Of a stretch of 64,000 nucleotides of DNA, positions 1 through 9,417 are shown in pieces. Positions within the stretch are counted from its first letter, which is position 1. Each line of letters begins with the position of its first letter. Made by a program: the position numbers and the translations under genes. The stretch is from assembly GCF_965641715.1 (NCBI RefSeq), contig NZ_OZ282453.1; one strand, given 5' to 3'. The stretch comes from Escherichia coli. GTDB lineage: Bacteria; Pseudomonadota; Gammaproteobacteria; Enterobacterales; Enterobacteriaceae. The notes under the pieces were generated by a model. It ran no database searches. It worked only from the letters and a program-made list of their open reading frames with translations, and was not told where the DNA came from.

Positions 1-2288
1 CCACAACACGAAAATTTAAAACCGTTATCACCGATACGGGTGCAAAAAAATTAGCTCAGGCAGCCGCGCCAGATGGTAAGCCTGTCCGCCTGACTCATAT
101 GGCCGTGGGCGACGGTGGCGGCACGTTGCCCACACCAGACAGTAAGCAGACCCGTCTGGTGCATGAGGTGTGGCGACACACTGTTAATCGCGTCATCCTG
201 GACGCAACACATCAGAACCGCATTATTGCGGAGCTGGTTATTCCTCCAGAAACGGGCGGATTCTGGATCCGGGAAATTGGTGTGTTTGATGAGCACGGCG
301 ATTTAATCGCAGTAGGCAATACTGCCGAAAGTTACAAGCCAACCGTTGCCGAAGGGTCAGGACGTGCACAAACATTTCGCACCATTCTGACCGTATCCAG
401 CACTGCCACCGTGGCGCTTACCGTGGATAACACCATGGTAATGGCCACAGTGGATTACGTGGATGACAAACTGAAAGAGCATGAACACTCACGACGTCAC
501 CCGGACGCCTCGCTGACCGCAAAAGGCTTTGTTCAACTTAGCAGCGCCACTAACAGCACGTCTGAAACGCTTGCGGCAACGCCAAAGGCTGTTAAGGCGG
601 CATATGACCTGGCTAATGGCAAATACACCGCACAGGACGCTACCACTGCGCGAAAAGGGATAGTTCAGCTCAGTAGCGCCACCAACAGCACGTCTGAAAC
701 GCAGGCTGCAACGCCGAAAGCAGTAAAGGCCGCGTATGACCTTGCTAACGCAAAATATACCGCTCAGGACGCCACGACGGCACAAAAAGGGATAGTCCAG
801 CTCAGTAGTGCCACCAACAGCACGTCTGAAACACTGGCCGCGACATCGAAAGCGGTTAAGGCGGTAATGGATGAAACGAACAAGAAAGCGCCCTTAAACA
901 GTCCTGCGCTGACCGGAACGCCAACAACGCCAACTGCGCGACAGGGAACGAATAATACCCAAATCGCAAGCACGGCTTTCGTTATGGCTGCGATTGCCGC
1001 CCTTGTAGATTCGTCACCTGACGCACTGAATACGCTGAACGAGTTAGCGGCGGCGCTGGGAAACGACCCGAATTTTGCGACCACCATGACTAACGCGCTT
1101 GCGGGTAAGCAACCGAAAGATGCCACCCTGACGGCGCTGGCCGGGCTTGCTACTGCGGCAGACAGGTTTCCGTATTTTACGGGGAATGATGTCGCCAGCC
1201 TGGCAACCCTGACAAAAGTCGGGCGGGATATTCTTGCGAAATCGACCGTTGCTGCCGTTATCGAATACCTCGGTTTACAGGAAACGGTAAACAGGGCTGG
1301 TAACGCCGTGCAAAAAAATGGCGATACTTTGTCCGGTGGGCTTACTTTTGAAAATGACTCAATCCTTGCCTGGATTCGAAATACTGACTGGGCGAAGATT
1401 GGATTTAAAAATGATGCCGATGGTGACACTGATTCATACATGTGGTTTGAGACAGGCGACAACGGCAATGAATATTTCAAATGGAGAAGCAAACAAAGCA
1501 CCACAACAAAAGACCTGATGAATCTTAAATGGGATGCTTTGTATGTTCTTGTTAAAGCTCTTTTCAGCAGTGAAGTAAAAATATCGACAGTCAATGCACT
1601 GAGGATATTTAATTCATCTTTTGGTGCCATTTTTCGCCGTTCTGAAGAATGCCTGCATATCATCCCTACACGAGAGAATGAGGGGGAAAATGGTAATATA
1701 GGGCCACTACGTCCCTTTACGCTTAATCTCAGAACTGGCCGCATAACTATGGGGCATGGTCTGGATGTTACAGGAGATATAACAACTAACGCCTGGGTGT
1801 ATGCAAACAGGTTTGCTATTAATAGTGGCTCAACCTCATGGATTGATATGCGAAACCAGAATGTCATTTTTGGTAGAAACGCAGTATCAACAAGTTCTGC
1901 GCAGGCTTTGTTAAGACAAGACCATGCAGAACGCAAATTTTTTGTCGGTGGACTTGGTAACTACCAGTTTGGTTTTTACATGATTAATAACTCAAGGACA
2001 GCCAATGGCACCGATGGTCAGGCGTACATGGACAATAACGGTAACTGGCTTTGTGGCTCGCAAGTTATTCCTGGCAACTATGGCAATTTTGATTCCAGAT
2101 ATGTGAGAGATGTTCGCCTGGGTACGCGAGTTGTTCAATTGATGGCGCGTGGTGGTCGTTATGAAAAAGCCGGACACGCAATTACCGGATTAAGAATCAT
2201 TGGTGAAGTAGATGGCGATGATGAAGCCATCTTCAGGCCAATACAAAAATACATCAATGGCACATGGTATAACGTCGCACAGGTGTAA
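1..2288 (+). CDS. Phage tail fibre protein (P2 gpH-like), 5' end outside window
   Basis: Reading frame is open from base 3 to stop at 2286-2288. N-terminal MAVGDGGG and AKGFVQLSSATNSTSETLAATPKAVK motifs are typical of P2 H-type fibres. C-terminus ends in INGTWYN-like motif. Confidence 0.85.
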   Translation, partial: TTRKFKTVITDTGAKKLAQAAAPDGKPVRLTHMAVGDGGGTLPTPDSKQTRLVHEVWRHTVNRVILDATHQNRIIAELVIPPETGGFWIREIGVFDEHGDLIAVGNTAESYKPTVAEGSGRAQTFRTILTVSSTATVALTVDNTMVMATVDYVDDKLKEHEHSRRHPDASLTAKGFVQLSSATNSTSETLAATPKAVKAAYDLANGKYTAQDATTARKGIVQLSSATNSTSETQAATPKAVKAAYDLANAKYTAQDATTAQKGIVQLSSATNSTSETLAATSKAVKAVMDETNKKAPLNSPALTGTPTTPTARQGTNNTQIASTAFVMAAIAALVDSSPDALNTLNELAAALGNDPNFATTMTNALAGKQPKDATLTALAGLATAADRFPYFTGNDVASLATLTKVGRDILAKSTVAAVIEYLGLQETVNRAGNAVQKNGDTLSGGLTFENDSILAWIRNTDWAKIGFKNDADGDTDSYMWFETGDNGNEYFKWRSKQSTTTKDLMNLKWDALYVLVKALFSSEVKISTVNALRIFNSSFGAIFRRSEECLHIIPTRENEGENGNIGPLRPFTLNLRTGRITMGHGLDVTGDITTNAWVYANRFAINSGSTSWIDMRNQNVIFGRNAVSTSSAQALLRQDHAERKFFVGGLGNYQFGFYMINNSRTANGTDGQAYMDNNGNWLCGSQVIPGNYGNFDSRYVRDVRLGTRVVQLMARGGRYEKAGHAITGLRIIGEVDGDDEAIFRPIQKYINGTWYNVAQV
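522..870 (+). repeat. Tandem in-frame coding repeats in tail fibre (two full 132-138 nt units plus a partial third)
   Basis: Peptide (G/I)VQLSSATNSTSET(L/Q)AATPKAVKAAYDLAN(G/A)KYTAQDATTA(R/Q)KG occurs twice in full and a third time partially. Nucleotide copies differ at synonymous positions. Confidence 0.8.
1258..1283. other. gix/pix-like invertase crossover site (left), inside tail fibre gene
   Basis: ttatcgaatacctcggtttacaggaa is an imperfect inverted copy of 4323-4348 and resembles the Mu gix site as recalled. Confidence 0.7.
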
Positions 2289-2819
2289 ATGATGCAGCAT
2301 TTAAAAAATATTAAGTCTGGAAATCCTAAAACGAAAGAACAATATCAGCTAACAAAGAATTTTGATGTTATCTGGTTATGGTCCGAAGACGATAAAAACT
2401 GGTATGAGGAAGTGAAAAACTTTCAGCCAGACACAATAAAGATTGTTTACGATGCAAATAATATTATTGTCGCCATCACTAAAGATGCCTCCACGCTTAA
2501 CCCTGAAGGTTTTAGCGTCGTTGAGGTTCCTGATATTACAGCCAACCGCCGCGCTGATGATTCAGGAAAGTGGATGTTTAAGGATGGAGCTGTAGTTAAA
2601 CGGATTTATACGGCAGACGAACAGCAACAACAAGGCGAATCACAAAAGGCCGCATTGCTTTCCGAAGCTGAATCAGTCATCCAGCCGCTGGAACGCGCTG
2701 TCAGGCTGAATATGGCAACAGACGAGGAACGCACACGACTGGAAGCATGGGAACGCTACAGTGTTCTGGTCAGCCGTGTGGATACGGCAAATCCTGAATG
2801 GCCACAAAAGCCTGAATAA
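2289..2819 (+). CDS. Tail fibre assembly chaperone (gpG/Tfa-like), cassette A
   Basis: 176 aa ORF directly after fibre stop. N-terminus [23 protein letters not shown] and C-terminal region match the Tfa family; paralogous to 2848-3381. Confidence 0.85.
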
Positions 2820-2826
2820 AAATTAA

Positions 2827-2842
2827 GGCCCGCGATCGGGCC
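2827..2842. terminator. Short GC hairpin between convergent tfa genes
   Basis: ggcccg-cgat-cgggcc palindrome; T-rich flank on the minus-strand side only. Confidence 0.4.
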
Positions 2843-2847
2843 TTGTC

Positions 2848-3381
2848 TCATTCAGGTTGTTCGGGAAATGTTACTGGCAGGCTGGAGGTGTCTGTAGATT
2901 CGACTTTCTGCGCATAGAGCATCCACTCGGTTAATTTTTGTTTATTCTCGTCGGAAATGATGCCCAGCCGTAGCTGTGAGTCCCATAGCTGGGTTTTATC
3001 CCTAACGAGCTGTAGCAGGCTTTGCTTTTCATTTTCCGCCTGCTGCCTCTGCTCTTCCTCGGTATAAGTTCGCTTTACCACTACGCCATCTTTGAACATC
3101 CATTTACCAGAAATATCAGCCCGGCGATTTGCTGTAATATCAGGAACCTCAACGACGCTTGCGCCTTCTGGATTAATTGCTGAAACATCCTTTTCAATAC
3201 AAATAATAACGTTGTTGTGGTCATAGACCATTTTCAACGTATCAGGCTGAAAGTTCTTTTGTTCCTCATACCAGTTTTTCCCATCCTCTGTATAAAGCCA
3301 TTTGATGTTAAATTGTTTCGTTAGCTGGTATTGCTCTTTTGTTTTAGGGTTGCCAGCAGTAATATTTTTTAAGTGCATCAT
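2848..3381 (-). CDS. Tail fibre assembly chaperone, alternative cassette B
   Basis: 177 aa minus-strand paralogue of the 2289-2819 product ([22 protein letters not shown]...), convergent with it. Confidence 0.8.
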
Positions 3382-3383
3382 AA

Positions 3384-4322
3384 TTAAATACTCCCCGCGT
3401 TATACCACGTCCCATTAATGCAATACTGAATTGGCCTTGCCTGAGTTGTATCAATTAATTCATCACGGTTTCCGTTAACTGAACCCGTAACGACATAACC
3501 TGACCTGTCAGACCAGCCGGGACCATTCCATGTCTGAACAGATGACAGACCGCCAAGGCGAATACCTGTAATAAACCTTGAGTTACATTCTGCCTGCGTG
3601 TATGCACCAACATCTCCCGCAGAGGGTTTGCGGGTCGTGGTGTAAAACTCTGACCAGTTAGCCTCAAATCCATAACCATCACGCGCTGAACGATAAAAAA
3701 TACCGCCGTTCCTGTAATTCACGCGGAACTGTACAGCAGGGCAGCTCCCCGTATTCATATTGAAGTGGAGGATTAATGTCGATGCACCGCTGATATCTGC
3801 ATCATAAACACCGCTATTCCAGTTCCAGCCAACAGCTTTATCATTTGCAACCCTGCTTCCTGTTTGCCCTAAAGCAAATGCAGGCTGCTGGTTTTTCGTG
3901 TTGTAGTCTCTTCGCCAGCCAGGAGCATAAGCATCACCATGATTAATATAAGTGAATTGAGCGTTAGAGGTGCCGCCTCCGGTGGAAGTGCTTGGTGTTG
4001 TTACACGGATGGTCATGGCACCTTTATTACCCATAACCTCAATAACGCAACCTGCAAGATGAATAGTTCCACAGCCAGTATCGGTAATAATTTTATTATT
4101 GCCGTATGACCATGAACATTTGCACATCCAGTATGGGTGATTGAATGCCCCTTGAGAATCCAGCCATTCAATCAATTGTGCCGTTGTCCAGTTCCCTGCC
4201 CCTGTACTAATAGCACTGTGAAAAGCGCGACATGCACCAATATTTTTTGTGAAGGTATCTTTTCCTGGAATATCTGCGCCGTTCTGGTTTTTCTGTAATG
4301 CGCCAGAAGCCTGATTTACCGT
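3384..4322 (-). CDS. Promoterless alternative tail-fibre C-terminal cassette, expressed only after inversion
   Basis: Minus-strand frame is open from the crossover site at 4323 to a stop at 3384. It begins ...[12 protein letters not shown], matching the [11 protein letters not shown] junction of the plus-strand fibre, and ends [11 protein letters not shown]. It has no start codon of its own upstream. Confidence 0.75.
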
Positions 4323-4348
4323 TTCTTGTAAACCGAGGTTTTAGATAA
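4323..4348. other. gix/pix-like invertase crossover site (right)
   Basis: ttcttgtaaaccgaggttttagataa, inverted partner of 1258-1283, immediately upstream of the invertase gene. Confidence 0.7.
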
Positions 4349-4402
4349 TGGCCGTTTCTGACCTGCATGGCATGATTTACGCTTTTGGACGGGAGATTCA
4401 GC

Positions 4403-4990
4403 GTGCTGATTGGCTATGTAAGGGTATCAACAAATGACCAGAATACAGACCTGCAACGAAACGCTCTTGTTTGTGCAGGATGTGAACAAATATTTGAAGA
4501 TAAATTAAGCGGGACAAAGACAGACCGACCGGGATTAAAACGCGCTTTAAAGCGTCTTCAAAAAGGTGACACGCTGGTTGTCTGGAAACTGGATCGCCTC
4601 GGGCGAAGCATGAAACATCTGATTTCTCTCGTCGGGGAACTACGGGAGCGAGGGATTAATTTTCGCAGTCTGACCGACAGCATAGATACATCTTCTCCAA
4701 TGGGGCGTTTTTTCTTCCACGTGATGGGTGCCCTGGCTGAAATGGAACGTGAATTAATTGTTGAACGTACACTGGCCGGACTGGCAGCAGCGCGCGCACG
4801 GGGGCGCACAGGCGGACGTCGCCCGAAGCTGACAAAAGAACAGCATGAGCAAATAGCAAGGCTGATTAAAAACGGTCACGACAGAAAACAACTGGCAATA
4901 ATTTACGGCATTGGTACATCGACGATTTATCGTTACCACCCCGCAGGAGAATCAAGCGGAGCAATAGAGAAGAGTCAGAAAACAAAATAA
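4403..4990 (+). CDS. Serine DNA invertase (Pin/Gin/Hin/Cin family)
   Basis: N-terminus (V)LIGYVRVSTNDQNTDLQRNAL with catalytic serine context and a C-terminal helix-turn-helix region. Probable GTG start at 4403; the ORF track starts at a TTG at 4385. Confidence 0.9.
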   Translation: MLIGYVRVSTNDQNTDLQRNALVCAGCEQIFEDKLSGTKTDRPGLKRALKRLQKGDTLVVWKLDRLGRSMKHLISLVGELRERGINFRSLTDSIDTSSPMGRFFFHVMGALAEMERELIVERTLAGLAAARARGRTGGRRPKLTKEQHEQIARLIKNGHDRKQLAIIYGIGTSTIYRYHPAGESSGAIEKSQKTK

Positions 4991-5018
4991 CCGCTAATCT
5001 GACCATTAGCGGTTTTTG
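4990..5018. terminator. Bidirectional intrinsic terminator between invertase and tail gene U
   Basis: accgctaat-ctgacc-attagcggt hairpin followed by TTTTT; the reverse strand is also T-rich. Confidence 0.65.
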
Positions 5019-5025
5019 TGTTAAA

Positions 5026-5520
5026 TCAGAACAGCCCTTTAACTGAACTGGCCGCGCTGTTAAGAGATGATGTCACCTTATCTTTGAAGCCGGACAGCAT
5101 ATCGCTGAACGATGAGGATTGCAGGCGCTCCCGCAAATCCTCATCACAGCGTTCAAGGGTCAGTGAAAATTCTATCTTTTTCGCCTTACCGTAGCGATCA
5201 AACTCGGAACGGGTCGTATTCGTTCCGGTCAGGACATACATGCCGTAAATCTGCCCGACACCATCAATCAGAGGCCAGGGGCGTCCTGTATATGCCTGCG
5301 TGGTCAGCAACGAAAGCGACACTTCGCCACCTGTAATTTCAGGATAAAGCACACCAGAAAGAACGATGCGATCATCGCCTGCCCCGATATACTGCCAGCT
5401 TGCTGAACGGTTAACGCGTTCATTTTTCACATGCCGCCAGCTTTTGTTTTGCTGTAACTGCTGATGCGGCAACGTGCGCAGCTCAAAAACAAACATGCCG
5501 TAGATCATCATCATGGCCAT
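5026..5520 (-). CDS. Phage tail protein (P2 gpU-like)
   Basis: 164 aa ORF immediately downstream of the tape-measure gene on the minus strand; size and position match gpU. Exact start among the N-terminal Met codons is uncertain. Confidence 0.7.
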   Translation of the reverse strand: MAMMMIYGMFVFELRTLPHQQLQQNKSWRHVKNERVNRSASWQYIGAGDDRIVLSGVLYPEITGGEVSLSLLTTQAYTGRPWPLIDGVGQIYGMYVLTGTNTTRSEFDRYGKAKKIEFSLTLERCDEDLRERLQSSSFSDMLSGFKDKVTSSLNSAASSVKGLF

Positions 5521-5526
5521 GACTCC

Positions 5527-8334
5527 TCAATCTTTATCGTAAAAACTGCCACGCCCGGCACGGGCGCGCCGTTCCATTTCTGCCCTGACCATTTCACCGA
5601 CCAGTTTCGCCAGTTCGCGGGGATTCTGCGTAACAACGTTATGCAGATGAACATGAATTTCACCACCAAATCCGGAGGCAACAGGCTCCCGGTTACGGGA
5701 AGTTACAGGAACTGATGCCACTGGAGATCGTATGGCCTCCGCCACCGGGCGGGAGCTGGCCGCAACAACAGGGACCAGCGCCGGAGGCAGCGGAGCCGGG
5801 ACCACGGGGGTGATATTAATTGCGGGGGCAGGCTTACTGACCTGCGCAATCTTCCGCTCCTGCCACTCCCCACGAACAGCAAGTGCGCGGGGCAGGTTCT
5901 TAAAGACAATATCGCCGGGGCCAATGCGTTTTTTCGTCTCATCAACCAGCTTACCTGTGTTATCAGCAATTTTGCTGAGTCTGCGTAGCGTCCCGGTATT
6001 GCTGTCTGTGAGCGGTTTATTGTCTTTGGGGTTATCACCTCCGGTGCCATTGCCATTTTCCACAGGCTTCGGCGGATTGATTTTCGCCAGGTCCCCCTGA
6101 AGCAAGGCAACCTTGTCCTGAAGAATGGCCGCACGCTGTGCGTCTTCGATTTTCTTTCTCGCCCTTTCCGCTTCATCCGGAAGCACACCGAGTTTTTCAA
6201 GTATCCACGCCAGCGTATCCAGCAGCATTTTTGCAGGCGTCAGAACAAGCTGTAGCGCGCCACCAAGAACGTTACCGAATATCTCGCCAGCACTGGTACA
6301 TTTATCCAGCGTTTCCTTGCTGGACTCCATCGGTGACAGCAGCGATTTAAACCAGTTAAAGAGCTGAATAATCCCATCGCGCACGACATCAAAAACAGGA
6401 CCAAACCGTTCAAAGGTTTCGCGCAACGGAGCCAGCCGTTCCATAATTCCACTGAACACCCCGGCATAAAACGCCTTGATGGGTTCCCAGTATTTCCAGA
6501 TGAGAACCGCCGCAGCCACAAACGCGGCAACAATCAATCCGACCGGACTGAACAGCGCCCCGATAGCGCCACCCAGCAACGAGATGGAACCTGTTACCAT
6601 TCCCCATAGTGCTGGCAGCACCCTGACGACATTCATTGATCCGGTCAGGAGAGAAAAACCAAGACGTAACGTGGCCAGTTTCCCGTGAAGCACGCCAATA
6701 ACCAGCGACAACGAGCCAATCGTTGCAGTCATTGCCAGCAACGCACCGCCTGCTATCAGTAGCTGGCGCGTCAGTGCCGGATGGGCCTGCGCCAGCGCCG
6801 TCACCCTTGATACCACCCGCGTGAGCCACTGCGTGACAGAACGCAGCGGGCCGTCAATCAGATCTGCAATGCGGATGCGCAACCCTTCCCATGCACTGCC
6901 GAGTGATTTCAGATCGCCGTCAAGGTTGTTGGCCATAACCTTTGCTGTGCGTTCAGCCTCACCGCGCGCGCCTTCAAGTTCTTTTCTCAGTTTAGGTAAG
7001 GAACCGTCACCCGCTGCATCAACGAGCGCCATAAACGATGTGAAAGCCTCTTCTCCGGCAATGTCCTTAAAGAACGATACCCGGTCAACTTCCCCGTATT
7101 TGCGGGTGGCTTTATAAAGGTCGGCCAGCACATCCTCCATCGGGCGCATTTTGCCGTTCGCGTCAGAGACTGCCACACCAAGCTCTTTCAGCGCCTCTGC
7201 TGCCGCCTTTGGCGGTGATGCAAGACGAGCCAGGCTGGCACGCATTGCCGTCCCGGCATCACTTCCCCTGATACCCATATTCGCCAGCACGCCCGCCATC
7301 GCTGCGGCCTGCTCCAGCGATATTCCCAGCTTGCCCGCCACCGGACCTGCATATTTCATGGTTTCGCCCAGTGCGCGAAGGTCAGTGTTGGTACGGGTAA
7401 ACGCTGCGGTGAGCGTGTCACCGACCCGGTCCATCTGGTCAGCAGAAAGGCCGAACTGCGTCAGGATATTTGAGCCAATATCTGCCGTCTCGCCGAGATC
7501 CATACCGCCAGCCGTTGCCATGCTCAGCACTCCGGGGAGCGCAGCCTGAATGGCCTGCGGTGTGAAGCCAGCCATTGCAAGAAATGCCTGCCCACTGGCG
7601 GCATCGCCTGCGGTGAACTGCGTTTCAGAGCCAAGTTTTAACGCCTGCTCACGCAGCGCCTTAAACTGCGGGCTGTTCTGGTCGATTCGCGTCAGCGCCT
7701 GAACGCGGGACATCTCTTTGCCGAACCCGATCGCGGGCTGCAAAAAACGCCCGGCAGCATAGCCGCCCGCCGCTGCCGCACCAATTGCCAGCGCACCACC
7801 TGTTTTCAGTTTTCCCGCGGTTTCCTGCGCGCGCGAATACCGCTCACGCGCCCGCGTTACACGCGCAAGCGCCTGCCGTTCGCGTTCAAGCTGGTTGTTG
7901 TACTGTTCGGTGCGTCTGATGGCCTGCTGGATGGTGTTATCGCTGCCTGTCAGGGAAATGCCGTGGCGTTTCAGCTCTCCGCCAAGTTCCCGCATTTTCT
8001 GAATTTCCCGTGTGCGCGATTCATTCAGGCGTTCAAGCCGGGTGCTTAACTGCTGCATCAGCTTTTGTTGTTTTTCGCTGAGCACTGTACCCGTGCGTTG
8101 TAACTGATTAAGAGCGTTAAGCTGGCGTCGTGCTTTCAATATGCCAGCATCCGCTTTACTGACAGCGTCACGGGCGCGCTCAAATGAACGCGCCTGACGC
8201 TCGAGATTTTTGATCGCCCCCTGCGTTCGCTGGATGGAGTCACCAAACTGCCCCATCAGGCGGCGGGCGTTTTCGGCAGGCCGGGTCAGCCTGTCAACGG
8301 CGCTGAAAGCGACCCGGATATCAAGAGTCTTCAT
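5527..8334 (-). CDS. Tail tape-measure protein (P2 gpT-like)
   Basis: About 935 aa, Ala/Gly-rich with predicted coiled-coil and membrane-like segments, downstream of the E/E' pair. ATG start at 8334 preferred over the GTG at 8370. Confidence 0.85.
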   Translation of the reverse strand: MKTLDIRVAFSAVDRLTRPAENARRLMGQFGDSIQRTQGAIKNLERQARSFERARDAVSKADAGILKARRQLNALNQLQRTGTVLSEKQQKLMQQLSTRLERLNESRTREIQKMRELGGELKRHGISLTGSDNTIQQAIRRTEQYNNQLERERQALARVTRARERYSRAQETAGKLKTGGALAIGAAAAGGYAAGRFLQPAIGFGKEMSRVQALTRIDQNSPQFKALREQALKLGSETQFTAGDAASGQAFLAMAGFTPQAIQAALPGVLSMATAGGMDLGETADIGSNILTQFGLSADQMDRVGDTLTAAFTRTNTDLRALGETMKYAGPVAGKLGISLEQAAAMAGVLANMGIRGSDAGTAMRASLARLASPPKAAAEALKELGVAVSDANGKMRPMEDVLADLYKATRKYGEVDRVSFFKDIAGEEAFTSFMALVDAAGDGSLPKLRKELEGARGEAERTAKVMANNLDGDLKSLGSAWEGLRIRIADLIDGPLRSVTQWLTRVVSRVTALAQAHPALTRQLLIAGGALLAMTATIGSLSLVIGVLHGKLATLRLGFSLLTGSMNVVRVLPALWGMVTGSISLLGGAIGALFSPVGLIVAAFVAAAVLIWKYWEPIKAFYAGVFSGIMERLAPLRETFERFGPVFDVVRDGIIQLFNWFKSLLSPMESSKETLDKCTSAGEIFGNVLGGALQLVLTPAKMLLDTLAWILEKLGVLPDEAERARKKIEDAQRAAILQDKVALLQGDLAKINPPKPVENGNGTGGDNPKDNKPLTDSNTGTLRRLSKIADNTGKLVDETKKRIGPGDIVFKNLPRALAVRGEWQERKIAQVSKPAPAINITPVVPAPLPPALVPVVAASSRPVAEAIRSPVASVPVTSRNREPVASGFGGEIHVHLHNVVTQNPRELAKLVGEMVRAEMERRARAGRGSFYDKD

Positions 8335-8538
8335 TGTCTGTATTCCCGCTGCGAAGTGCCGCCCGCTCACGCCAGCTAACCACTTCGCCGGGAGTCATCA
8401 TGAAGATTTCGGCGGGCGACCAGTTAAAAATGGCGGCAATATCCGCCACAAAGTCTTCTATGTGCTCAAAGCACACAACCGTGATCAGGCTTCCGTCGCC
8501 TGTTCGTTCTTCCCGCCAGAGTCCGCACCGCTCAAAAA
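8321..8538 (-). CDS. E' extension frame of tail chaperone, reached by programmed -1 frameshift from E
   Basis: A 78-codon frame overlaps the 3' end of E and ends at the tape-measure start. It is entered at the minus-strand TTTTTTG heptamer. Confidence 0.6.
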
Positions 8539-8850
8539 ATTTACGGCAACCACACATAACTGAATAAAGTCACGGGATGCCATTTTTTTGATCGTCACTT
8601 CATCCAGTCGCGGTGATGTCACGCGTGACAGCAGCGTAAACATGGATTCCGCTTTCAGATTCAGCACATCAGACAGCGACAAATCTCGCAGAGATCCAGC
8701 CTGCTCAATAGCCCCGGTGATCTCCACATACGTGATTTTTTCGCCGCCTCGCTCAATTGGTTGGGTAAGTTTTACGCCACGCTCACTGGTTTCTTTCACA
8801 GTGTCAGTAACTACCGTGTTTTCGGTATCGATGTTTTTCGTCTCTTTCAT
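8485..8850 (-). CDS. Tail assembly chaperone (P2 gpE-like)
   Basis: Small ORF between the tail tube and tape-measure genes, with an overlapping -1 frame. True start may be internal. Confidence 0.7.
   Translation of the reverse strand: MKETKNIDTENTVVTDTVKETSERGVKLTQPIERGGEKITYVEITGAIEQAGSLRDLSLSDVLNLKAESMFTLLSRVTSPRLDEVTIKKMASRDFIQLCVVAVNFLSGADSGGKNEQATEA
8532..8538 (-). other. Candidate -1 frameshift slippery heptamer TTTTTTG (E/E')
   Basis: Plus strand reads caaaaaa at 8532-8538; on the minus strand the E frame reads gta aat ttt ttg agc. Same arrangement as the P2 E/E' recoding site. Confidence 0.6.
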
Positions 8851-8904
8851 CAGGAAACTCCTTTCAGTCAGAGGCGACGCACTGCGCCGCCTGCATATTA
8901 CTTA

Positions 8905-9417
8905 TCAGCCAAGCCCAAGCGCGGAACGGATACGGTCAGGCACAATGTCCTTGCCGTCCTTCCGGTAGATGAAGTTCAGCAGGTCAATCTCCCACAACGG
9001 GCGATCGTTAACACTCAGCTTGTAGTAGGTGTTTTTAATGGCGTAAGTGTGTGATGTGGCTTCGCCCTGTTTGGCTTCCCCCATATCAATTTCCGTCACA
9101 CGTCCGCGCATTTCGACTTCATACAGGTCGCTTTCTGCATCGGTGTAGTATTCACCCGCAAAACGCAGCAGCGTGCCGTCAATCGTGCCGCCATACTTAA
9201 GGAACAGCTCACGAACTGCGCCCCCCATGACAAAGCTCGCATCAAGCGCGGAGTCGTCCAGACCGAGATCAATACTTACCGCACCCATCATGCCGCCACC
9301 CCGGTAGCTGTCGGTTTTGCGCGTCAGCTTAGGCAGAGTGACGGACGTCACCTTACCCACTTCGTTTTCACCATCCACAAACAGCGTAAAAAAGCGAAGA
9401 TGTTTTGGCACAGCCAT
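8905..9417 (-). CDS. Tail tube protein (P2 gpFII-like)
   Basis: 170 aa, start overlaps the sheath stop (shared A at 9417); position and size match FII. Confidence 0.85.
   Translation of the reverse strand: MAVPKHLRFFTLFVDGENEVGKVTSVTLPKLTRKTDSYRGGGMMGAVSIDLGLDDSALDASFVMGGAVRELFLKYGGTIDGTLLRFAGEYYTDAESDLYEVEMRGRVTEIDMGEAKQGEATSHTYAIKNTYYKLSVNDRPLWEIDLLNFIYRKDGKDIVPDRIRSALGLG

Follow-up and report, generated by a model that had tools for sequence, protein, structure and literature searches.

Both cassettes of a Mu G/P1 C-type invertible tail-fibre segment in an Escherichia coli P2-like prophage carry a common tip domain and a common chaperone N-terminal domain

At one edge of a 64,000-nucleotide stretch of Escherichia coli DNA (contig NZ_OZ282453.1 of assembly GCF_965641715.1; hereafter the window), two alternative tail-fibre ends lie on opposite strands, each paired with a gene for a tail-fibre assembly chaperone (Tfa). 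The bodies of the two fibres differ, and yet both close on the same short C-terminal motif. Why should a fibre tip be retained when the part that precedes it is exchanged? The initial annotation had suggested that the tip is a docking element shared by the paired chaperones, with receptor specificity swapped around it. To answer the question, we compared positions 1–5200 of the window with known phages and considered the fibre tips and the chaperones in terms of sequence, predicted fold and distribution.

Anatomy and relatives of the invertible segment

The features of the region are collected in Table 1. The tail-fibre gene is cut off at its 5′ end by the window edge, its frame being open from nucleotide 3, and it terminates in ...DDEAIFRPIQKYINGTWYNVAQV and a stop codon at 2288. 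Pfam recognizes Phage_tail_fib, three copies of Phage_fiber_2 and Gp34_trimer in the product, and residues 393–729 match the Mu fibre protein S (5YVQ_A) with E 2.7e-138. The left crossover site separates the constant part (Sc) of this fibre from its variable part (Sv), and the inverted repeat I2 spans 1254–1318 and 4288–4352. The silent counterpart, Sv′, is a minus-strand open frame without a start of its own; it matches the Mu S′ structure 8JU3 (E 2.3e-193), with a weak Pfam match to gp37_C, and contains a tip domain at 3387–3587 with the motif at 3399–3437 (minus strand). Between the two chaperone genes, the G+C-rich hairpin has its T-run on the minus-strand side. The interval 2289–4322, to which the feature had initially been assigned, takes in U, U′ and Sv′ but misses the plus-strand tip.

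Table 1. Features of the invertible tail-fibre region (window coordinates)
Feature	Coordinates	Strand	Evidence and remarks
Tail-fibre gene, expressed orientation	3–2288	+	P2 H-like N-terminus and Mu/P1 S-like C-terminal part; ORF, translation
Left 26-bp crossover site, TTATCGAATACC-TC-GGTTTACAGGAA	1258–1283	+	In fibre ORF; inverted repeat I2
Tip domain of expressed fibre (last ~66 aa + stop)	2088–2288	+	Alignment to Sv′; profile family
tfa (U), assembly chaperone of expressed fibre	2289–2819	+	Pfam Caudo_TAP, E 1.3e-36
G+C-rich hairpin, terminator-like	2825–2844		Between convergent tfa stop codons; terminator-like scan
tfa′ (U′), chaperone of silent cassette	2848–3381	−	Pfam Caudo_TAP, E 4.1e-37
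Sv′, silent alternative C-terminal fibre part (312 aa + stop)	3384–4322	−	Frame open to crossover site
Right 26-bp crossover site, TTATCTAAAACC-TC-GGTTTACAAGAA (minus-strand reading)	4323–4348	−	Inverted repeat
Serine DNA invertase (Gin/Cin/Pin/Hin family)	4403–4990	+	Pfam Resolvase and HTH_7

The invertase, whose likely start is the GTG at 4403 (the ORF finder had placed it at a TTG at 4385), shares 157 of 193 residues with Mu Gin; the context of the catalytic serine, VRVSTNDQ, is kept, and within the first 118 residues a single position differs. In invertible segments of the Gin/Cin/Pin type (Mu G, P1 C, e14 P), it is the 5′ part of the invertase gene that contains a Fis-dependent recombinational enhancer. 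The two crossover sites are inverted with respect to each other, agree at 23 of 26 positions and both have the central TC; the corresponding site of Mu reads TTATCCAAAACCTCGGTTTACAGGAA. When the segment was inverted in silico at the central TC, the constant part was joined in frame to Sv′, giving an open frame of 739 residues, and U′ then started 2 nt past the fibre stop. In the present orientation, the stop codon TAA of S (2286–2288) directly adjoins the ATG of U at 2289. In the mechanism that we propose, the invertase would recombine the two sites and thereby attach the constant fibre part either to Sv and U, as at present, or to Sv′ and U′.

The P2-like phage P88 (Xuanwuvirus) matches the whole 5.2 kb in one piece, flanking tail gene included, at 93.7% nucleotide identity. 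The C segment of P7 and P1, which is served by cin, is 94–95.5% identical over ~3 kb of the invertible segment, with Sv′, U′ and U in common, but there the backbone is the P1 plasmid prophage rather than a P2-like prophage and the constant fibre part is unlike. With Mu and D108, the invertible part (the G segment, comprising S, U, U′ and S′, together with gin) shares 91% DNA identity; the architecture is the same, the sequences are orthologous, and the 91% applies to the crossover sites as well as to Sv′, U, U′ and the invertase. Mu S ends in ...IRPVQKNINGTWYNVASA, the same tip motif occurring in both cassettes. In contrast to Mu, however, the constant N-terminal part here resembles P2 H, and the present Sv is a mosaic whose middle (1545–1950) and tip domain (2085–2288) are not Mu-like. 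At the DNA level, the expressed tip block is L-413C/P2-like instead. The tip domain of L-413C H is 82% identical to the expressed one, with the terminal 18 residues identical, and L-413C G is ~92% identical to U of the window. The H–G pair of P2 and L-413C is nonetheless non-invertible, lacking both an invertase and a second cassette. The P2-like elements Fels-2 and SEN8 do share the layout of the window (fibre, tfa, tfa′, fibre′, invertase), and the second cassette of Fels-2, which has another fibre tip and an unrelated chaperone N-terminal domain (N-domain), provides a useful natural contrast. In the lambda Stf–Tfa and T4 gp37 type, the C-terminal domain (C-domain) of Tfa is homologous (Caudo_TAP) and the chaperone acts at the fibre C-terminus, but lambda Stf closes on a C-terminus of another kind (HxH needle type, ...NIAFNYIVRLA), and the N-domains of lambda Tfa and of U are unrelated.

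The matches to P88, to P7 and P1, and to Mu and D108 thus identify a classical Mu G/P1 C switch on a P2-type backbone. As such the element is already known, a textbook Mu G or P1 C segment with nothing new about it. Among 5426 complete E. coli genomes, 2760 contain parts of the locus, the best full-length match being only ~94% identical. Copies of U′ that are at least 95% identical were found on 472 viral contigs; because the search with U′ alone gave only copies at or above 95%, this collection shows variation of the partner cassette, not distant diversity. The two orientations of Mu differ in host range according to the literature, as van de Putte in 1980 and Kamp in 1978 are said to have reported, and by analogy the two orientations of the present element would be expected to do so as well.

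A tip domain common to two unlike fibres

The claim that both fibre ends have the same tip motif is borne out: 11 of the 13 residues of RPIQxxINGTWYN are identical. The expressed fibre ends in ...FRPIQKYINGTWYNVAQV at 2235–2288, its hairpin motif RPIQKYINGTWYN occupying 2235–2273, and the silent end lies at 3387–3440 on the minus strand. Local alignment of the last ~66 residues of the two fibres gave a score of 95, compared with 40.4 ± 5.8 for shuffled sequences and a maximum of 62 among 300 shuffles, which rules out chance likeness. The likeness is not confined to the motif, as had been assumed, but extends over a domain of ~65 residues that is ~30% identical overall, the last hairpin being its best-conserved piece. 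By contrast, local alignment of the upstream bodies detected no likeness above chance (score 32, compared with 36.5 ± 5.6 for shuffles), in keeping with the annotated difference between them. The further description of the silent cassette as rich in cysteine and tryptophan holds for cysteine (8 residues compared with 2), whereas the excess of tryptophan is marginal (11 compared with 9).

The tip domain belongs to a large family. A tblastn search with the last 67 residues of Sv′ returned 92 phage records, including P2-like, Mu-like and P1-like phages, Chaseviridae and T7-like Berlinviruses, and the same motif is present in fibres from phages of Kluyvera, Yersinia, Salmonella and Cedecea. A profile built from 13 diverse tips was then searched against 1.84 billion proteins and matched at least 480 representative clusters, 192 of them with E ≤ 1e-10. 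In 147 of the best 150 profile matches, the domain ends 0–2 residues from the C-terminus of the protein. The consensus R-P-[ILV]-Q-x-x-I-N-G-T-W-Y-N forms the terminal β-hairpin of this ~65-residue C-terminal domain. Among 146 diverse representatives, the frequencies along the motif are R 93%, P 82%, [LIV], Q 97%, K 67%, x, I 76%, N 77%, G 78%, T 52%, W 95%, Y 75% and N 67%. The motif is also present in all five tip variants of the partner cassette found in ~65 related invertible segments. One eukaryote-like lectin/coiled-coil protein bears the tip domain as well; no Tfa gene was seen nearby.

When the C-terminal 80 residues of Sv′ were modelled with AF2 (pLDDT 92.3), the hairpin took the form of a strand ...RP(I/V/L)Q-x-x-I, an NG turn and a final strand TWYN. 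In the PDB, the model matches only 8JU3 (Mu S′, E 2.8e-9) and 5YVQ_A (Mu S, E 8.4e-5). The fold and these matches together indicate that the motif is the hairpin that closes a widespread fibre-end domain, one which both solved Mu fibres have in common.

Paired chaperones and their link to the tip

Both chaperones belong to Caudo_TAP (PF02413), with 126.1 bits for U and 127.7 bits for U′ against a gathering cut-off of 22.1. The paralogues had been described as differing centrally while sharing both termini. Their alignment instead shows identity falling towards the C-terminus, from 77 of 100 positions in columns 1–100 through 12 of 20 in columns 101–120 to 16 of 58 beyond, the C-terminal third being ~27% identical. 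The shared N-terminus is therefore real (~77% over ~110 residues, with residues 1–20 and 81–100 as the most conserved blocks), whereas at the C-terminus only ...P-x-x-PE is shared. U matches 5YVQ_B with E 1e-107, and its identity with Mu U is ~94%. In its AF2 model (pLDDT 91.7), an N-domain of residues ~1–104 is followed by helices at 109–139 and 145–162, and Foldseek superposes the 103 resolved residues of 5yvq_B on residues ~1–104 of the model (TM 0.96, r.m.s.d. 1.3 Å). The resolved segment of 5yvq_B is thus the segment of U that is conserved in U′, which means that the part of the chaperone that is bound to the fibre is the conserved part.

Published work on Mu gives this correspondence its meaning. 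In 5YVQ, the N-domain of TfaMu binds the distal Mu fibre (PMC9608196, PMC7291167, PMC8174754, PMC10579305), three Tfa monomers sitting on the trimeric fibre tip via their N-domains, one per chain (PMC9608196, PMC7291167, PMC8174754). For Mu S and U, Tfa is needed for trimerization of the fibre and stays on the tip (PMC9608196, PMC8174754, PMC10579305). The C-domain of Tfa is unresolved in 5YVQ and is thought to mediate trimerization (PMC9608196, PMC7291167, PMC8174754, PMC10579305). 8JU3 is a fibre without chaperone, so docking between S′ and U′ is not visible there. Given the 5YVQ complex and the conserved N-domain, the idea of shared docking matches published structural work.

The distribution of the two domains points in the same direction. 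All 16 tip-bearing fibres from the phage collection, which represent five or more lineages, have a Caudo_TAP gene directly downstream, and the N-domains of these 16 Tfa proteins carry the motif G-x-x-W-Y-E ... D-T-x-K-x-x-Y-D. Two further, diverse tip-bearing cases are likewise followed by Caudo_TAP, bringing the total to 18 of 18 phage or prophage fibres; the tip domain marks fibres that need a Caudo_TAP chaperone. In lambda Stf and in the second Fels-2 cassette, where the fibre ends are of other kinds, the Tfa N-domains are unrelated although the C-domain is U-like. Across phage families, then, the tip domain co-occurs with the U-type N-domain of Tfa and not with the type of C-domain. The annotated notion of a conserved tip as a common platform for paired chaperones, with the bodies swapped, is consistent with both 5YVQ and this co-occurrence.

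Judged by sequence identity, however, the two whole domains are coupled only loosely. S and S′ have tips that are 30% identical and chaperone N-domains that are 77% identical, and cassette 2 of P1-infant has a tip 59–67% identical to those of the window S and L-413C together with an N-domain only ~40% identical to theirs. Mantel tests of tip identities against Tfa identities gave r = 0.69 for the N-domain and r = 0.58 for the C-domain, values that are confounded by linkage and shared ancestry and on which we therefore do not rely.

The C-domains follow a pattern of their own. In every invertible segment examined, those of the two chaperones are consistently unlike, and only the lambda/U-like type clusters tightly. 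A clean second class ('type B') was considered and abandoned, as identities speak against it: the C-domain of U′ is 30–34% identical to those of the cassette partners in Fels-2 and SEN8 and 32% identical to that of U. The reading that C-domains are matched to fibre bodies is weakened by P1-infant, whose two cassettes have stretches of the body in common (exact repeats of 110 and 80 nt) and yet differ in C-domain.

Explanations for the conserved tip

We consider it likely that the region is a Mu G/P1 C-type invertible host-range switch of a P2-like prophage in which the tip domain shared by the two fibres serves as the dock for the N-domain shared by the two chaperones. In such a switch, the α/β domain at the chaperone's N-terminus (~1–104) would bind the tip of the fibre trimer, one copy per chain, and stay on, and the helical C-domain would promote oligomerization; from this placement of the chaperone it would follow that folding of the fibre begins in register at its C-terminus. 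Because the same tip domain is retained in both cassettes, near-identical chaperone N-domains would be retained too, while the bodies, the loops that vary within the tip domain and the C-domains of the chaperones diverged or were exchanged, yielding two receptor specificities on one baseplate attachment. The hairpin residues probably belong to the contact with the chaperone or to a folding nucleus.

Other accounts of the likeness were weighed against this docking model. The tip and the 5′ block of tfa could be alike because the likeness is kept at the DNA level, the block serving as a recombination linker or being a gene-conversion tract between the two inverted cassettes, through concerted evolution or module shuffling. 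The motif is indeed part of a 40-nt inverted repeat (I3, 80% complementary; 2235–2274 and 3398–3437), which, with the inverted repeat I1 (2288–2648 and 3025–3385), makes the conserved DNA almost continuous from the fibre tip through the stop codon into tfa (2235–2648 compared with 3025–3437); exact patches reach 29 nt here and 44–57 nt in other copies, and in Sv the tip domain has mosaic breakpoints on either side. As DNA, however, the block is only 70–80% identical. Five of the 11 conserved codons of the motif differ synonymously (pS 0.71, pN 0.09), which indicates that conservation of the motif acts on the protein, and the motif is conserved as protein, with different codons, in hundreds of unrelated fibres. 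Synonymous sites are saturated between the two cassettes (pS 0.71–0.85) while non-synonymous change is low, with pN of 0.09 in the motif and 0.15 in the Tfa N-domain, compared with 0.52 in the C-domain of Tfa. It follows that the shared parts are old and have been kept by selection on the protein rather than by recent copying; despite the short exact patches, recent gene conversion as the source of the shared motif is ruled out, and the DNA-level account as a whole is very unlikely. We regard as slighter still the chance that the common tip binds a receptor element present in both host ranges, such as the inner core of lipopolysaccharide (LPS), to which the bodies add strain specificity. Binding to LPS has been reported for Mu fibres and for TfaMu, with the LPS-binding part of S described as its C-terminal region (PMC8174754, PMC10579305), but the conserved residues are those of the terminal hairpin and the core, the tip loops differ strongly from one S allele to another as well as from S to S′, and the motif recurs in phages of hosts as different as those listed above.

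A more serious competitor to docking, although we think it on balance improbable, is that the motif is nothing but a structural core intrinsic to the tip domain, conserved for the sake of the fold and not of docking, the last β-hairpin forming the trimer axis or folding nucleus while the chaperone contacts other, more variable surfaces. The near-invariance of the arginine, glutamine and tryptophan (93%, 97% and 95%) throughout the family, whatever the subtype of the Tfa N-domain, is what such a core would show, as are the alternating hydrophobic pattern and NG turn that are typical of a buried hairpin and the presence of the tip domain in the lectin/coiled-coil protein, for which no Tfa gene was seen. 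The motif is, moreover, conserved to the same degree in MLP1, PYps16N and BIS20, where identity of the Tfa N-domain to that of U is only ~20–25%, which favours a role that is at least partly intrinsic and structural. To judge from these comparisons, the motif may be mainly a structural or trimerization core rather than a contact epitope. The hairpin itself may lie inside the core of the trimer and make no contact with the chaperone. A purely structural role is harder to reconcile with the 18 phage or prophage loci examined, in all of which the tip domain is accompanied by the U-type N-domain of Tfa, or with the position of Tfa at the fibre tip in 5YVQ (PMC9608196, PMC8174754); in addition, were the conserved tip residues all buried, the N-domain blocks 1–20 and 81–100 would be left without a conserved partner surface.

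A broader reading, which we hold to be rather improbable, goes beyond docking in a single switch: the hairpin or tip domain and the chaperone N-domain would constitute a portable, co-inherited docking cassette, the C-domain would have a body-specific or anti-cross-assembly role, and a coiled coil would be able to replace Tfa. If true, the cassette would be contiguous across the stop/start junction and would have been kept for a long time while bodies, tip loops and C-domains were exchanged. The unlike C-domains would then reflect the body-specific or anti-cross-assembly role, which is not predicted by the current model of a generic oligomerization domain, and the occurrence of the tip domain in the chaperone-less lectin/coiled-coil protein would mean that a coiled coil can take the place of Tfa.

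For the switch itself, little that is new is added here, as it is the classical Mu/P1 one, and both fibre ends as well as the chaperone complex have been solved and published. The natural domain swaps, in the second Fels-2 cassette and in lambda, support the N-domain rather than the C-domain as the part of the chaperone that is matched to the fibre. The tip hairpin R-P-x-Q-x-x-I-N-G-T-W-Y-N, located at the very C-terminus, is a reliable marker of fibres that need a chaperone of the TfaMu type, with a matching N-domain, and this marker helps in the design of chimeric fibres or retargeted tailocins.

Composition and surroundings of the expressed fibre

The expressed variable part of the fibre gene (window 1275-2288) is a mosaic, in which Mu-like stretches lie on either side of a non-Mu-like one and the C-terminal tip domain resembles that of L-413C/P2 rather than that of Mu. 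The fibre gene is truncated at the window's left edge. Beyond the invertase gene come tail genes of P2 type, which lie on the minus strand and converge with the fibre operon, as they do in phage P88. The closest complete E. coli genome matches the locus at only ~94%.

Coordinates of the features in the window and in loci from other sources
Feature	Position	Strand	Remark
Truncated end of the fibre gene	window 1-100		
Mu-like stretches	window 1275-1545 and ~1950-2040		up to 91-100% vs Mu
Non-Mu-like stretch	window 1545-1950		40-67% vs Mu
Expressed tip domain	window 2085-2288		
Convergent tfa genes (U, U')	window 2289-3381		
Inverted repeat	window 2514-2542 vs 3131-3159		29 nt, perfect
Hairpin	window 2825-2844		8 bp, G+C-rich
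Tail genes	window 5026-9417	minus	gpU-like, tape measure, E-like, tail-tube-like
Berlinvirus tip-plus-chaperone region	L001:914-3231; L002:890-3226		
P0128 gene	L094:2501-3667		388 aa

The paired chaperone genes

Four different invertible fibre segments were compared: that of the window and Mu, and those of SEN8, the P1 relative MH422554 and Fels-2 (loci L003, L087 and L088). In each (4/4), one chaperone carries a lambda-Tfa/U-like C-domain, these C-domains having a mutual identity of 60-96%, and its partner carries a divergent one.

Within the window, the N-domains of U (expressed cassette) and U' (silent cassette) share the inverted repeat, which is coding (10 residues); apart from this exact repeat, synonymous sites between the two genes are saturated. 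In three other copies of the element (L026, L047 and L073) the exact patches are different ones, 44-57 nt long and located at the 5′ end of tfa. These observations suggest sporadic gene conversion between U and U'. The hairpin, flanked by the stop codons of the two genes, has a T-run on its minus-strand side only, and probably ends transcription of either cassette, whichever is on.

The tip domain in other proteins

The tip-domain profile search returned P0031 (144 aa, a cluster representative), in which the fibre tip ...RRPLQKFIGGVWRTINV continues into a Tfa-like N-terminus, MQLKNM...KLTK...; this protein is either a fusion of fibre and chaperone or an artefact of sequencing or gene calling. 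In P0128, from JGI metagenome 3300061474, an N-terminal C-type lectin domain is followed by ~170 residues of coiled-coil-like repeats and, at the extreme C-terminus (...RRKVQKFVNGTWLNVY), by the phage fibre tip domain. On L094 its gene has few others around it, and it looks eukaryote-like or giant-virus-like; no Tfa gene was seen within 360 nt downstream.

The same tip domain as in the window is also found on gp17 of two T7-like Berlinviruses, Kluyvera phage Kvp1 and Escherichia phage Bas103, where the C-terminus reads ...WRVMQYVRNNGQRFNIY. Both phages also encode a Caudo_TAP (tail-fibre assembly chaperone) gene, 17.2, so the module of tip and chaperone has passed between myophage and podophage lineages.
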